A DNA stretch of 8,953 nt from a virus (lineage: Duplodnaviria; Heunggongvirae; Uroviricota; Caudoviricetes), in the IMG/VR virus record IMGVR_UViG_2778261177_000008, one strand, 5' to 3'. Of the stretch, positions 851 to 8,953 are shown piece by piece; position 1 is the first letter of the stretch, and the number at the start of each line of letters is the position of its first letter. The notes below the pieces were generated by a model. The model saw nothing but the letters and a program-made list of their open reading frames with translations. It was not told where the DNA came from and did not search any database. The position numbers and the translations under genes are program-made.

Positions 851-927
851 TTACCCCTGAGGTAATTAAAAACCACATAAGACACGAAATCAATAGATTT
901 TAGAATATTTTATTACCCAAAAGGTAA
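851..927 (-). promoter_or_regulatory. Promoter/operator module: two TTACC-N5-GGTAA palindromes flanking a -35-like TTGATT
   Basis: Perfect palindromes at 851-865 (TTACCcctgaGGTAA) and 913-927 (TTACCcaaaaGGTAA). On the minus strand the order is operator, 19 nt, TTGATT (plus 888-893), 22 nt, operator, then RBS and ATG of the 500..847 gene. An AT-rich -10-like TTTAAT lies 17 nt after the -35. Confidence 0.6.
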
Positions 928-2884: not shown

Positions 2885-3115
2885 TCATGAGTAGAAGAAG
2901 TATGCCAGTTCTGCTTTTGAGCGCAGCCATTGTCTTGTTTTACAGGCTTTAAAAAGCCCATTCATCAATACCTTACCTGGCATTTTGCGCTTACCTGTTA
3001 AGTGAGTCTGGATATAGTGACTCGTCGTTCCGGCTTCCTGTGCGAAGGCTTCACGCTCATCCGGAGTAAGTGCAAGCCAGTGCTTTTTGAAATCAAAATG
3101 TCCGTTATCGCTCAT
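2885..3115 (-). CDS. Cro-like small HTH DNA-binding regulator
   Basis: 76-aa ORF with a helix-turn-helix-like segment (REAFAQEAGTTSHYIQTHLTGKRK). Transcribed divergently from the repressor gene across an operator-rich intergenic region and followed by a terminator, as for lambda cro. Confidence 0.6.
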   Translation of the reverse strand: MSDNGHFDFKKHWLALTPDEREAFAQEAGTTSHYIQTHLTGKRKMPGKVLMNGLFKACKTRQWLRSKAELAYFFYS

Positions 3116-3140
3116 AGCTATTGCCTGATATTTATTTCAG

Positions 3141-3214
3141 ATAATAAATATTCACCCATAAGGTAACAAAAATCAAGGATAGTTACCTATGAGGTGCATT
3201 TACCTGATGGGTAA
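3141..3214. promoter_or_regulatory. Divergent promoter/operator region (OR-like) between the cro-like and repressor genes
   Basis: Three operator-like palindromes: 3152-3166 (TCACCcataaGGTAA), 3183-3197 (TTACCtatgaGGTGC) and 3200-3214 (TTACCtgatgGGTAA, perfect). Centres are spaced 31 and 17 bp apart. Leftward promoter candidates on the minus strand: -35 TTGATT (plus 3171-3176) or TTGTTA (plus 3164-3169), with -10 TATTAT (plus 3141-3146). The site at 3152-3166 overlaps the -35/spacer. Confidence 0.6.
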
Positions 3215-3269
3215 TATTGCTTTAAATTGAATCATCTACTGATTCATATATGAGGCGATTTTCCAGAAA

Positions 3270-3854
3270 ATGAAAAGTATCCAGGACGTCCGCAGGCAAA
3301 ATCTCAACGACTTGATCGACCGTGAATTCAATGGTGTTCAGACGCGGATGGCAGAAAAACTTGGAACTCAGGCAAATCTGGTAAACCGCTGGGCTCTTGG
3401 CAAGAAGGTTATCGGCGACCAGGTTGCGCGAAAAATTGAAGCTGCCGCCAATAAACCCCGTAACTGGCTTGATATCGATCGCTCGCTTTCTCAGGAAGGT
3501 TTTCAGCCTGTCGGCCCAAGCGACATTGGCCAGCTGGCGGCTCACAACCTGGAACGCTGGATGAGCGAAAGCCGCGACCTTTCAACACAGGGAAAACTTC
3601 ACCGCGCATCCGGCGTAGCCCAGGTGACAATCAGCCGCCTGTTAAACAATGAGGTCAGCGTTTCCATTTCCACCCTGGAGAATGTTGCATCCGCATTCGG
3701 GCGTCACGGCTATGAATTACTGATTCACCCGCACGACCCTGCGACCATCAACTATGATCGCTCGCGCTACGCATTGTTACCCGAAACCGAGAAAGCAAAG
3801 ATCGAAAGTTACATTGAATTTGTCATCAACCAGAACGAAAAAAGCAAACAATAA
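3270..3854 (+). CDS. Putative prophage repressor (CI-equivalent) with two tandem HTH_XRE-type domains
   Basis: 194-aa ORF with two HTH-like segments (GVQTRMAEKLGTQANLVNRWALGKK and LHRASGVAQVTISRLLNNEVS). No recognisable LexA-like S24 peptidase domain. Sits between the operator cluster and a strong terminator, divergent from the cro-like gene. No good SD: GAGG is 14 nt upstream of the ATG. Confidence 0.7.
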   Translation: MKSIQDVRRQNLNDLIDREFNGVQTRMAEKLGTQANLVNRWALGKKVIGDQVARKIEAAANKPRNWLDIDRSLSQEGFQPVGPSDIGQLAAHNLERWMSESRDLSTQGKLHRASGVAQVTISRLLNNEVSVSISTLENVASAFGRHGYELLIHPHDPATINYDRSRYALLPETEKAKIESYIEFVINQNEKSKQ

Positions 3855-3874: not shown

Positions 3875-3898
3875 AAGCCGCCTCATGGCGGCTTTTTT
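3875..3898 (+). terminator. Rho-independent terminator after the repressor gene
   Basis: GC-rich 8-bp stem AAGCCGCC (3875-3882), loop TCAT, GGCGGCTT (3887-3894), running into TTTTTT (3893-3898). Lies 20 nt downstream of the repressor stop TAA (3852-3854). Confidence 0.75.
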
Positions 3899-3911
3899 AT
3901 TGCCAGATAGA

Positions 3912-3988
3912 TTACCTTACGGGTAATTTTTTTAACTCATATCTATTGACACCAAACCAAATAAGCATAATTATTACCTCAACGGTAA
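3912..3988 (+). promoter_or_regulatory. pL-like early-left promoter with two flanking operators
   Basis: Perfect palindromes at 3912-3926 (TTACCttacgGGTAA) and 3974-3988 (TTACCtcaacGGTAA), with consensus -35 TTGACA at 3946-3951. The -10 is AT-rich (AATTAT at 3969-3974 with a 17-nt spacer) and overlaps the second operator. A GGTAA half-site lies at 3996-4000. Spacing is operator, 19 nt, -35, 22 nt, operator. Confidence 0.65.
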
Positions 3989-4162: not shown

Positions 4163-4462
4163 ATGAACGTTAATCAGCAGAAAAATCTTCAAAAAATCAT
4201 GCTGGCATTCGACAAGGACTACCGTCTGTCAGAACAGCTATATGACCGACAAGTTGAACTGATTGAGAGTATCCGGCTTCATCAACTGGCATCAACTTTC
4301 GACGTTGTAACAGTTAAAGGCGTTCGCCAGGAAGTACTGGAGGCCGCTAAAGACAGCCCTGAGTTCGAAGAACTGATGGATTCCTACCGGCGCGAGGCAA
4401 TGGCAATTATCGCCCGCTGGGATCTGGCTGATCAGCTTGATGGGCAGAGGGACGCGGCATGA
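4163..4462 (+). CDS. Hypothetical phage protein (99 aa)
   Basis: ORF track starts at 4148, but ATG 4163 has a strong SD GGAGGG (4151-4156) and begins 2 nt after the upstream stop. The stop overlaps the exonuclease start (ATGA at 4459-4462). No family recognised. Confidence 0.55.
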   Translation: MNVNQQKNLQKIMLAFDKDYRLSEQLYDRQVELIESIRLHQLASTFDVVTVKGVRQEVLEAAKDSPEFEELMDSYRREAMAIIARWDLADQLDGQRDAA

Positions 4463-5280
4463 ATCCGGGAATTTATTTCGATATCAGCAACGAGGACTAC
4501 CACGCCGGTGACGGCGTGAGTAAGTCGCAGCTAGATATGGTGGCTAAGAACCCTGCCCTTCTGAAATGGGTGAAGGCTGCTCCGGAAGACGAAGAGAAGA
4601 AGTCTGCACTGGACATGGGTACTGCTCTGCACTGTCTGCTTCTGGAACCTGGAGAGTTTGACAAACGCTTCATCGTTTCACCGAAATTCGATCGTCGGAC
4701 AAAACAAGGTAAAGCTGACGAAGAGGCATTTATTCGTGATGTAGCGGATATGGGGATTTCGGTACTTGATGCAGAGCAGTGGCGAAAACTGGAGCTGATG
4801 CGTGATAGCGCAATGGCTCACCCGGCGGCACGCTGGATGTTGGAAGCACCTGGTTACTGCGAAGCATCAATGTACTGGAACGATGAAGAGACGGGTGAGT
4901 TGTGCCGAATTCGTCCAGACAAATGGCTGAACGAGCACAACGTGATCGTCGACGTGAAAAAGGTTGCAGATATGGACCGTTTTGCACGCCACATCGAGGA
5001 ATTCCGCTACCACGTGCAGGACGCAATGTACCGCGAAGGCGCAATGAGGGTTACTGGTCAGCCGCATGGTTTTTTCTTTCTTGCCGTGAGCGAAAGCATT
5101 GATTGTGGTCGGTATCCGGTACGCGTGTTCGAGCTGGATGCGCCAGATGTCGATGCTGGGCACGCTCTGTTCCGCCGGGATCTGAATACCTATCACGAAT
5201 GCCGCATCAACGATGAATGGGGCGGAGTGGAAATTATTAAACGCCCTGACTGGGCACGTAAACAGGATATGTACGTATGA
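4459..5280 (+). CDS. PD-(D/E)xK-family exonuclease (RecE / exodeoxyribonuclease VIII-like domain), recombination partner of the annealase
   Basis: 273-aa ORF. N-terminal GIYFDISNEDYHAGDGVSKSQLDMV and the motif IRPDKW...VIVDVKK are characteristic of the RecE-like PDDEXK exonuclease family found in prophages (from memory). Translationally coupled to the downstream annealase gene (ATGA at 5277-5280). SD GAGGGA about 8 nt upstream. Confidence 0.7.
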   Translation: MNPGIYFDISNEDYHAGDGVSKSQLDMVAKNPALLKWVKAAPEDEEKKSALDMGTALHCLLLEPGEFDKRFIVSPKFDRRTKQGKADEEAFIRDVADMGISVLDAEQWRKLELMRDSAMAHPAARWMLEAPGYCEASMYWNDEETGELCRIRPDKWLNEHNVIVDVKKVADMDRFARHIEEFRYHVQDAMYREGAMRVTGQPHGFFFLAVSESIDCGRYPVRVFELDAPDVDAGHALFRRDLNTYHECRINDEWGGVEIIKRPDWARKQDMYV

Positions 5281-6158
5281 GCAATGATATCGCAATCACA
5301 TCACAACCAGGCGCAACTGTAGGCACTGCTGCGGCAATCTTCAGCCCCGAGGGCATGAATCAACTGGTGCGTTTCGCGGAGTTGATGTCACAAAGCAAAG
5401 CGACTGTACCGAAACATCTTGAAGGCAAACCTGCCGATTGCCTGGCGGTGACCATGCAGGCGGCACAGTGGGGAATGAACCCTTTCGCCGTGGCGCAGAA
5501 AACGCATGTGGTAAACGGAACGTTAGGCTACGAAGCACAGTTGGTAAACGCGGTCGTATCCTCTTCCAGCCTGCTGGCGACACGCCTGAATTATCGCTGG
5601 AGCGGTGACTGGTCGAATGTTAACGGCAAAACAGATAAATCACCGAATCTGACGGTAACTGTGTCAGCAGTTCTTAAAGGAGAAGCAGAACCCCGTGAGC
5701 TTACCATCAGTATGGCGCAAGCCGGAGTGCGTAACTCTCCATTGTGGGAACAGGATCCGCGCCAGCAACTTGCCTATCTTTGCACGAAACGATGGGCTCG
5801 CCTGCACGCTCCTGATGTACTTCTCGGTGTTTACACCCCAGACGAATTACAGGAAACGGCACCGCGCGTTGAGCGAGACATTACTCCGCAAACGACCACT
5901 GCTGCGGGAATGAACAGTCTGATCAACGCTAAACCAGCGAAAAAGCCTGATGAGCAAACGCGTAAAGCGGATAGCCGTGATCCAGAAGAAATGCTGATGG
6001 CCTTTACCAGCGCAGCGATGAATTACAGCACTGTCTCCGAACTGGATAAGGCTTACAAATACATTGCACAAAAACTTTCAGATGATGACGAACTGCTGGC
6101 AAAAGCCACCGACGTTTACAGCGTTCGTCGGGAAGAATTAAACGAAACATCTATGTAA
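5277..6158 (+). CDS. Single-strand annealing recombinase, Bet/Red-beta-like
   Basis: 293-aa ORF. Shares with lambda Bet, as I recall it, the N-terminal pattern ...A.Q.G.NP... (CLAVTMQAAQWGMNPFAV) and the C-terminal ERDITP motif (VERDITPQ here, PERDITPV in Bet). Immediately follows, and is coupled to, the exonuclease gene. Confidence 0.75.
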   Translation: MSNDIAITSQPGATVGTAAAIFSPEGMNQLVRFAELMSQSKATVPKHLEGKPADCLAVTMQAAQWGMNPFAVAQKTHVVNGTLGYEAQLVNAVVSSSSLLATRLNYRWSGDWSNVNGKTDKSPNLTVTVSAVLKGEAEPRELTISMAQAGVRNSPLWEQDPRQQLAYLCTKRWARLHAPDVLLGVYTPDELQETAPRVERDITPQTTTAAGMNSLINAKPAKKPDEQTRKADSRDPEEMLMAFTSAAMNYSTVSELDKAYKYIAQKLSDDDELLAKATDVYSVRREELNETSM

Positions 6159-7702: not shown

Positions 7703-8953
7703 TTATTCCCCCGCCATCCACTTCTCAAACTTCGACGGGGAGAACGGAATCAGATCCGTATGCTCCCCGTTAATCCATGAATCAATCATATCGGCCCACT
7801 GCTGCAACATGTAGGCGCGCTGTCTGGCGTATTCCGCTTTGTTATATACGGCGCGCACACCTTTCTGCTCATGTGCCAGAGCCTTTTCAATCCAGTCTGA
7901 AGGATAACCAGCCTCATGCAACAACGTACTGGCTGTACGGCGCATATCGTGTACGGTGAAGTCCTGAATATGCTCACCATCTTCCTTTATTATTTTCACC
8001 GTTCTGTCGATCAGAGAGTTCAGCGCGGCATTAGATAATGGCTTCCGGAAGTTGTAACGACCAGGAACCAGATATTCACTTCCACCAGCGCACATCTGCA
8101 ACCCGACCAATATATCCTGTGCCTGTTTAGGCAGGTAAATAACGTGCGCCCGGCTTCCCTTCATGCGGTCTGAAGGAATTGTCCATGTCCATTTTTTAAA
8201 ATCTATTTCGTCCCACGTTGCATTGGTGAATTCGCCTTTACGAACCATAGTGATAAGCACCAGCTTTAAAGCCATTTTCATAGTGCCCATAGCACCAATG
8301 GCATCCAGCGTGCGGAAGAACAGGCCAATTTCTTCTGGTGTCAGTGTTCGCTCTCGTGGTTTAAATATGGCGATAGACGAAGGTTTAATGTCAGCCGCAG
8401 GATTAAACAAACCATGACCACGGTCATTGGCGTGACGGTATACGCTGCTGATGATCTCCCTGGCCTGCACTGCTGTTGCCCGGCCACCGCGTTCGACAAT
8501 CCGGTCACACAAATCACGAACCATCGATGTGGTAATTTCAGCCATCATTTTGTTGCCAAGAACCGGAAGTATGTCACGGTCGATCACTGCCTGCTTCATT
8601 GCGCGGGTACTTTCAGCCAGGATGACGTGTTTCATATAACTGTCGGTATGTACCGCAAACGTCTCGGCACCACGAATCTTTTTTATACCGTCACGTTTAG
8701 CCGCAGCCGGTGACTGGCCTGCTTTAAGCAGCTTCTTTGCAGCAATCAGTTCTTCTCGCGCTTCTGCCAGGCTGATACCGTCACTCCCATACTGCCCGAT
8801 TACCAGCGTTTCGCGGCGACCGTTGATACGGTAGTCGTAGCGAAACGAGACCGTGCCTGACGTAAGCACAGCTACATACAGCCCATCACGATCGGAGACC
8901 TTGTACAGTTTGTCCTGCGGCTTGAGGTTTTTTAATTTTGTATCGGTAAGCAC
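7703..8953 (-). CDS. int: Tyrosine recombinase / integrase, P4 (CP4-57 IntA-like) family; 5' end at or just beyond the window edge
   Basis: 416 codons, open to the window end. The N-terminal LTDTKLKNLKPQDKLYKVSDRDGLYVAVLTSG matches the arm-binding domain of P4-type integrases. The C-terminal region has the HxxR box (HDMRRT) and conserved Tyr-containing region of tyrosine recombinases. The first codon in the window is GTG, so a few N-terminal residues probably lie outside. Confidence 0.9.
   Translation of the reverse strand: MLTDTKLKNLKPQDKLYKVSDRDGLYVAVLTSGTVSFRYDYRINGRRETLVIGQYGSDGISLAEAREELIAAKKLLKAGQSPAAAKRDGIKKIRGAETFAVHTDSYMKHVILAESTRAMKQAVIDRDILPVLGNKMMAEITTSMVRDLCDRIVERGGRATAVQAREIISSVYRHANDRGHGLFNPAADIKPSSIAIFKPRERTLTPEEIGLFFRTLDAIGAMGTMKMALKLVLITMVRKGEFTNATWDEIDFKKWTWTIPSDRMKGSRAHVIYLPKQAQDILVGLQMCAGGSEYLVPGRYNFRKPLSNAALNSLIDRTVKIIKEDGEHIQDFTVHDMRRTASTLLHEAGYPSDWIEKALAHEQKGVRAVYNKAEYARQRAYMLQQWADMIDSWINGEHTDLIPFSPSKFEKWMAGE

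Follow-up and report, generated by a model that had tools for sequence, protein, structure and literature searches.

How is a prophage released from immunity when its repressor carries no LexA-like autocleavage domain? This question is raised by the gene at 3270-3854 (hereafter rep) in an 8,953-nt stretch of tailed-phage DNA, the whole of which is here called the window. The initial annotation, made from the letters and open reading frames, had read the product as a CI-equivalent with tandem HTH segments whose induction might use an antirepressor or another signal. We conclude, with a probability of roughly 0.9, that the product of rep is the immunity repressor, of Rep type, of a prophage resembling epsilon15 and phiV10, and that this prophage is SOS-induced via a LexA-controlled antirepressor, Ant, with no self-cleavage of the repressor.

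Early and immunity genes of an epsilon15/phiV10-like (Uetakevirus) prophage make up the window. Read from right to left, it carries the tyrosine integrase; methyltransferase, PerC-like and AlpA-like genes; and RecT with a PD-(D/E)XK exonuclease. Further leftward come two small ORFs, rep on the plus strand, a divergent cro-like gene whose position matches that of phiV10p41 and SPC32H_042, DnaT-like and lambda-P-like replication genes, and a DUF1064 gene (Table 1). The 1.4 kb around rep is 97-99% identical to the corresponding region of the phages HEMP4, PAS61, ZX5, phiV10, and TL-2011b, and matches covering at least 80% of the window are present in 333 of 5426 complete Escherichia coli genomes; in the closest of these (702/18), guaA adjoins the prophage. 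The exonuclease (4459-5280) and RecT (5277-6158) are separate, overlapping genes in the window; the phiV10 record instead annotates a single fused RecE-RecT ORF, p37. An antisense ORF of 107 aa at 3222-3545, which overlaps rep, was taken as spurious: homology on the plus strand already explains this entire stretch, and the PGAP annotation of the closest E. coli prophage has no gene at the equivalent place.

Table 1. Features of the rep locus and of the ant loci in relatives; positions refer to the window unless another genome is named
Feature	Position	Strand	Remarks
rep, immunity repressor	3270-3854	+	194 aa; ATG start; intact ORF; stop codon 3852-3854
N-terminal HTH domain of Rep, aa 1-72	3270-3485	+	DNA-binding domain by homology; model helices 4-19, 24-31, 35-43, 50-59
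Second HTH-like domain of Rep, aa 89-152	3534-3725	+	equivalent of SPC32H Rep MDD (middle dimerisation domain); HTH_3 at aa 106-147
C-terminal tail of Rep, aa 153-194	3726-3851	+	equivalent of tetramerisation/Ant-binding domain (CAD/TetDloop); aligns to C-terminus of 5D50 and 5D4Z
cro-like gene	2885-3115	-	76 aa; divergent from rep; phrog_35 'transcriptional repressor', E 5.6e-13
Tyrosine integrase	7703-8953	-	
Candidate operator pair, both perfect	851-865 and 913-927		62 bp apart; between P-like and DUF1064 genes
Leftward sigma-70-like promoter, TTGTTA-17-TATTAT	3141-3169	-	for cro-like and replication genes; consensus match only
Candidate operator TCACCCATAAGGTAA, 1 mismatch	3152-3166		overlaps -35 of leftward lytic promoter; half-sites kept in four phages
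Candidate operator TTACCTATGAGGTGC, 2 mismatches	3183-3197		
Candidate rep promoter	3199-3228	+	-35 TTTACC 3199-3204, 18-nt spacer, -10 TAAATT 3223-3228; hexamers kept in SPC32H, Tyrion, BUCT711
Candidate operator TTACCTGATGGGTAA, perfect	3200-3214		overlaps candidate rep -35
SD-like GAGG	3252-3255	+	13-14 nt upstream of rep ATG; usual spacing 5-9 nt
Intrinsic terminator ending rep transcript	3875-3902	+	also annotated as terminator in phiV10; separates rep from rightward promoter
Candidate operator TTACCTTACGGGTAA, perfect	3912-3926		upstream of rightward early promoter
Rightward early promoter, TTGACA-17-AATTAT	3946-3974	+	10/12 consensus match; recombination genes and genes toward int; kept in relatives
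Candidate operator TTACCTCAACGGTAA, perfect	3974-3988		62 bp from 3912 site; abuts -10 and covers expected rightward transcription start
ant homologue, 85 aa	phiV10 20543-20800	-	LexA box 20822-20837
ant homologue	ZX5 2501-2758; E. coli 702/18 locus 10165-10422		

Domain content and identity of the repressor

No start earlier than the annotated ATG of rep is possible because of an in-frame stop at 3240. The Pfam HTH_3 profile matches the product in two stretches (E 1.2e-9, the best stretch being residues 106-147), and its score of 38.5 bits, against a Pfam gathering cutoff of 23, places the protein in the XRE family; a YdaS/Cro-like HTH match at residues 21-61 (E 3e-4) lies under the curated cutoff. 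An AlphaFold2 model, built from an alignment of 26 sequences (mean pLDDT 76.5), predicts one helical bundle from helices at 4-59 and a second, separate one from helices at 83-151, with residues 74-84 as a disordered linker and residues 172-193 as a long C-terminal helix; residues 157-166 of the tail, modelled as a monomer, have a pLDDT below 50. The two profile stretches and the two bundles of the model together bear out the proposal of two XRE-type HTH segments. These are not the result of a recent duplication, as BLASTP finds no similarity between the N-terminal and middle segments.

The absence of an S24 module, the other half of that proposal, also holds. A Pfam profile search returns no Peptidase_S24 match in Rep even at E<=1, only about 42 residues extend beyond the second helical bundle, and neither an Ala-Gly nor a Cys-Gly dipeptide is present anywhere in the 194-aa sequence. 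A cryptic S24 module was accordingly rejected. Lambdoid precedent is what could still be invoked for a lambda-CI/LexA-type repressor with a hidden self-cleavage module that is directly inactivated by RecA*, given that the switch of this prophage is divergent as in lambda and that its replication genes include lambda P-like ones. Yet the approximately 42 residues after the second helical domain, the stretch available to such a module, align to the tetramerisation/Ant-binding tail of the repressor of the Salmonella phage SPC32H. The review PMC7380047, citing Kim & Ryu 2013, names that phage as one of several Salmonella prophages in which an antirepressor made after LexA self-cleavage brings about induction, with repressor cleavage not being the main route. 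We therefore give the self-cleavage alternative next to no weight, and RecA-stimulated cleavage of Rep is as unlikely as had been supposed from its domain content.

The repressor itself is a known one. Rep is 100% identical to the HEMP4 repressor and 99.5% identical to phiV10 ORF40, ZX5 ORF21, and the repressors of other E. coli Uetakevirus members. The phiV10, ZX5, and TL-2011b repressors, at 99-100% identity and at the same locus, show essentially no difference from it; what differs is only the isolate or prophage in which this one gene is found. In GenBank, the phiV10 entry already carries the annotation [quoted passage not shown]; public records otherwise name rep merely "helix-turn-helix domain-containing protein." When Li et al. 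(2022, PMC9782041) overexpressed ZX5 ORF21, no free phage remained, and endolysin and holin transcripts dropped by over 99.9%. This block of lytic functions by a 99.5%-identical protein, together with homology to the SPC32H repressor, supports the view of Rep as the CI-equivalent of the prophage.

The more distant homologue from SPC32H provides the structural frame. Residues 1-190 of Rep match residues 2-197 of SPC32H Rep (5D50_A) over the full length (phmmer, E 3.5e-42), and residues 89-190 align to Rep 92-198 in PDB 5D4Z. By tblastn, the identity to SPC32H rep is 42.7% over 99% of the query, and the overall figure lies at 41-43%, with the highest value in the N-terminal domain (53%), followed by the tail (45%) and then the middle domain (34%). 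Foldseek with the model likewise places 5D50 and 5D4Z on top, followed by generic XRE HTH domains, and the three-part architecture of SPC32H Rep is matched by the two helical bundles and C-terminal helix of the model. At the level of individual positions, the recognition-helix motif NLVNRW is the same in both proteins, and the tetramer-interface residues Phe187 and Phe190 of SPC32H Rep correspond to Y181 and F184, the latter being invariant in 26 family members. SPC32H Rep also occupies the same genomic position, divergent from a cro-like gene, with the same operators and layout.

Crystal structures of SPC32H Rep are available both alone and with the antirepressor Ant (PDB 5D4Z, 5D50). According to PMC9986798, the protein begins with a DNA-binding domain (DBD), continues with a dimerisation domain in the middle (MDD), and ends in a tetramerisation domain (CAD, a p53-like "TetDloop") that also binds Ant; according to PMC9638917, it binds DNA as a tetramer, and an Ant tetramer takes two Rep dimers, thereby breaking the Rep tetramer. 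The mechanism goes back to Kim & Ryu (2013, J Virol) and to Kim et al. (2016, PNAS) and is cited here from later papers that refer to them; a search of the DdrO paper (PMC6868357) for a description of Rep returned none. The three-part composition of DBD, MDD, and tetramerisation/Ant-binding tail is shared by rep, SPC32H Rep, and epsilon15 gp38. The differences from SPC32H Rep lie in the overall identity of 41-43%, which falls to 34% in the middle domain, in the host (Salmonella as against E. coli), and in Ant binding, which for rep would hold by analogy. By the same analogy, rep is expected to behave like SPC32H Rep; at just 41-43% identity, the Ant-Rep contact is therefore an assumption in the case of rep.

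Since rep maps onto the domains of SPC32H Rep, its second HTH-like segment is best read as a dimerisation module, and the "tandem HTH" would then not amount to two DNA-binding domains. Were both segments to bind DNA, a single polypeptide could engage a pair of half-sites, or sites of two different classes, and operator recognition would rest on the tandem arrangement itself. The middle segment indeed has the stronger HTH_3 match, and the polar residues Q107, Q118, and R123 of its helix-turn-helix are invariant among close relatives; nevertheless, Q107 and Q118 are not kept in SPC32H Rep, where the middle domain serves dimerisation and the N-terminal one is the DBD (PMC9986798). Moreover, the candidate operators described below are simple 15-bp palindromes with one type of half-site, as would be read by paired identical N-terminal domains. 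We consider two DNA-reading segments very improbable, and retain dimerisation as the role of the second.

Operators, promoters, and the leader of rep

The 15-bp palindrome TTACC-N5-GGTAA occurs as five perfect sites in the window, against none in 200 shuffles; with up to two mismatches there are 11 sites where 2.6 are expected. Its distribution relative to the promoters (Table 1), on both sides of rep, is that of a lambda-like bidirectional switch. The half-sites and their spacings of 48, 62, and 337 bp are kept in SPC32H, Tyrion, and BUCT711, the repressors of which are 41-78% identical. The 337-bp spacing is that between the 3152 operator and a one-mismatch site, TTACCTTTGAGGTAC, at 2815-2829, which adjoins a terminator-like hairpin at 2844-2863 on the minus strand, directly downstream of the cro-like gene; its position is kept in phiV10, Tyrion, and an E. 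coli prophage. Pairs of operators 62 or 63 bp apart recur in an E. coli prophage and in the phages phiV10, SPC32H, Tyrion, and BUCT711. Such a spacing would suit a single Rep tetramer spanning two operators approximately six helical turns apart. As one such pair sits between the P-like and DUF1064 genes, Rep probably gates a third transcription unit as well.

In the whole phiV10 genome, 14 operator sites are found at up to one mismatch where 0.65 are expected; some lie close to the terminase start, ahead of the lysis cassette, or upstream of int, among other places. Repression by Rep may extend to far more promoters than that by a lambda-type CI. LexA, on the other hand, appears not to act directly at the rep locus, because the window holds no perfect CTGT-N8-ACAG box, and its five one-mismatch matches against 2.8 expected are not significant.

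The start of rep translation had been described as lacking a conventional SD and compared with the leaderless translation of lambda cI. The first statement is roughly right, with the qualification that a GAGG, the only SD-like element before rep, does exist at a poor distance; it is not kept in SPC32H, Tyrion, or BUCT711. This weak SD is not distinctive of rep, because that of the cro-like gene is also weak. The second statement fares less well. The mRNA of lambda cI from pRM is leaderless, and the poorly placed, unconserved GAGG would be consistent with the same situation in rep. However, a consensus scan yields no -10-like hexamer ending 6-8 nt before the rep ATG, and the sole nearby match, TTCATA-17-GAAAAT, overlaps the ATG itself. 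By comparison, the candidate at 3199-3228 is the only promoter-like match kept in all four phages compared, and it predicts a rep transcript with some 35 nt ahead of the start codon. A leaderless rep mRNA is accordingly unlikely, as far as promoter prediction can tell, and the weak SD that the cro-like gene shares does not set rep apart as leaderless.

The antirepressor and the route of induction

The proposal that induction uses an antirepressor is upheld by relatives carrying the same repressor and, through the analogy with SPC32H, by the published mechanism. The phiV10 protein p24 (85 aa, "hypothetical") is approximately 88% identical to chain E of 5D50, "Anti-repressor protein" (E 2.9e-46). 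In the phages phiV10, ZX5, and HEMP4, as in the guaA-linked prophage of E. coli 702/18, the ant gene lies behind a perfect LexA box, TACTGTATAAATA(T/C)ACAGT, about 20 nt upstream of its ATG; this box upstream of ant, TACTGTATAAATATACAGT, reads TACTGTATAAATACACAGT in phiV10 and is nearly identical in the other three. By tblastn, Ant is present in 35 phage records, including every record with a full-length Rep except the 138-kb BP9. Homology to SPC32H Rep and the ant gene with its LexA box in the closest complete relatives make LexA-controlled antirepressor induction the published mechanism of this Rep family. Both ant and its box lie outside the 8.9-kb window and were read in relatives at 97-99% nucleotide identity, and for that reason the source prophage is presumed, from its sequence kinship, to carry them. 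The small Ant is labelled "hypothetical protein" in all E. coli phage and genome records examined.

The mechanism that we propose runs as follows. The N-terminal HTH domain of Rep would read the TTACC-N5-GGTAA operators, the second HTH-like domain would make dimers, and the short strand-helix C-terminal tail would join two dimers into a DNA-binding tetramer, all by homology to SPC32H Rep. Rep seated on the three rep/cro intergenic operators and on the 62-bp pair around the rightward promoter would shut both divergent lytic promoters, and with an operator over the candidate rep -35, autoregulation is possible. Induction would proceed without RecA-stimulated self-cleavage of Rep: upon DNA damage, cleavage of the host LexA would derepress ant, which would lie approximately 25-30 kb away from rep. 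The Ant tetramer, again by homology, would bind the C-terminal domains of Rep, splitting the Rep tetramer into dimers that come off the DNA.

The E. coli phages of this group present a further candidate for the inducing factor in the form of a Bro-N "anti-repressor" (ZX5 3074-3769; phiV10 19551-20230, minus strand), for which no solved structure was found by sequence. It was this protein, ORF4, and not the small Ant homologue, that the ZX5 study tested as anti-repressor (PMC9782041). Its overexpression lowered prophage numbers approximately 1000-fold and repressor transcripts by 75% (PMC9782041), and ZX5 lysogens show high spontaneous induction; accordingly, the working inducer in E. coli phiV10-like phages could be Bro-N instead of the small Ant, with induction perhaps not driven by SOS. 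Against this stands the C-terminal domain of ORF4 itself, which is Ant-like (42% identity to the small Ant, E 1e-19), so that its effect fits the Ant mechanism. Furthermore, the phiV10 Bro-N gene is interrupted in its Ant-like part by a frameshift between p23 and p22, while all relatives examined retain an intact small ant together with its LexA box. We regard Bro-N as the main inducer as improbable, if less so than the alternatives weighed above, and the small LexA-controlled Ant as the likely one.

Given the Ant-like C-terminus of Bro-N, E. coli phiV10-like phages encode two Ant-domain proteins; the Salmonella relatives have only one Ant match per genome. In phiV10, a 41-bp perfect palindrome just past ant (20484-20524), GGAGTGCTTATATTTACC-GCAAA-GGTAAATATAAGCACTCC, has a perfect Rep operator at its centre, and a further operator is located upstream of the ant promoter (20877-20891). 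As these operators flank ant, the ant/Bro-N region is possibly under the control of Rep as well as of LexA. One may tentatively conceive of an undescribed two-tier antirepressor system in the E. coli phiV10-like phages, with the LexA-controlled Ant as the primary SOS trigger and the downstream Bro-N as a second tier; because a Rep operator lies between both genes in phiV10, the Bro-N tier could serve either as a feed-forward step under Rep or as an input that does not depend on SOS. A more modest novelty would be some remaining DNA contact by the middle HTH-like domain. We hold such a departure from the known scheme to be possible, though on balance doubtful.

The two partners have diverged unevenly: from phiV10 to SPC32H, and so from E. 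coli phage to Salmonella phage, Ant keeps approximately 88% identity, whereas Rep is only 41-43% identical (45% in its Ant-binding tail). Despite this divergence of Rep, the operator half-sites and the recognition helix are the same in phiV10 and SPC32H. Mosaic exchange of modules is one possibility for the uneven divergence of Ant and Rep.

Relation to other repressor systems and significance

The same logic of induction is known from coliphage 186 (CI/Tum) and from Gifsy/Fels-2, where a LexA-repressed small antirepressor inactivates a non-cleavable repressor by binding (PMC7380047); the searches run found no sequence relationship of the proteins of these systems to Rep or Ant. The cognate Ant of SPC32H itself is represented, at 88% identity and behind a LexA box, in the relatives of rep, and according to PMC9638917 it splits Rep tetramers, unlike an antirepressor competing for the DNA-binding surface. 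Lambda CI is a functional analogue of Rep: the two share a setting in which lytic promoters diverge from the repressor gene, three operators lie to one side of it and additional ones to the other, and an operator at the repressor's own promoter suggests autoregulation. In contrast, self-cleavage and oligomerisation of lambda CI reside in an S24 domain, and its cleavage involves RecA*, whereas rep has neither the domain nor a cleavage site. A likeness of another kind is offered by Rco of the Bacillus plasmid pLS20 (PMC9986798), which combines an N-terminal HTH DBD with a C-terminal strand-helix tetramerisation domain (p53-like TetDloop), and for which DNA looping is proposed and an anti-repressor is known; unlike Rep, it lacks the middle HTH-like dimerisation domain, and the tails of the two share no sequence similarity.

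The antirepressor reading of rep is correct but already known: the gene is annotated in phiV10, it was tested in ZX5, and its SPC32H homologue has been solved with Ant. What the analysis of rep offers is thus a re-derivation, from sequence alone, of a mechanism that was worked out genetically and structurally for its phage family. Mildly new are the unannotated true Ant in E. coli phages, the second Ant-like domain in Bro-N, the recurrent 62-bp operator pairs, and the 14 operator sites of phiV10. Carrying the Rep/Ant/LexA annotation of SPC32H over to the E. coli records would make the SOS inducibility of such prophages predictable.
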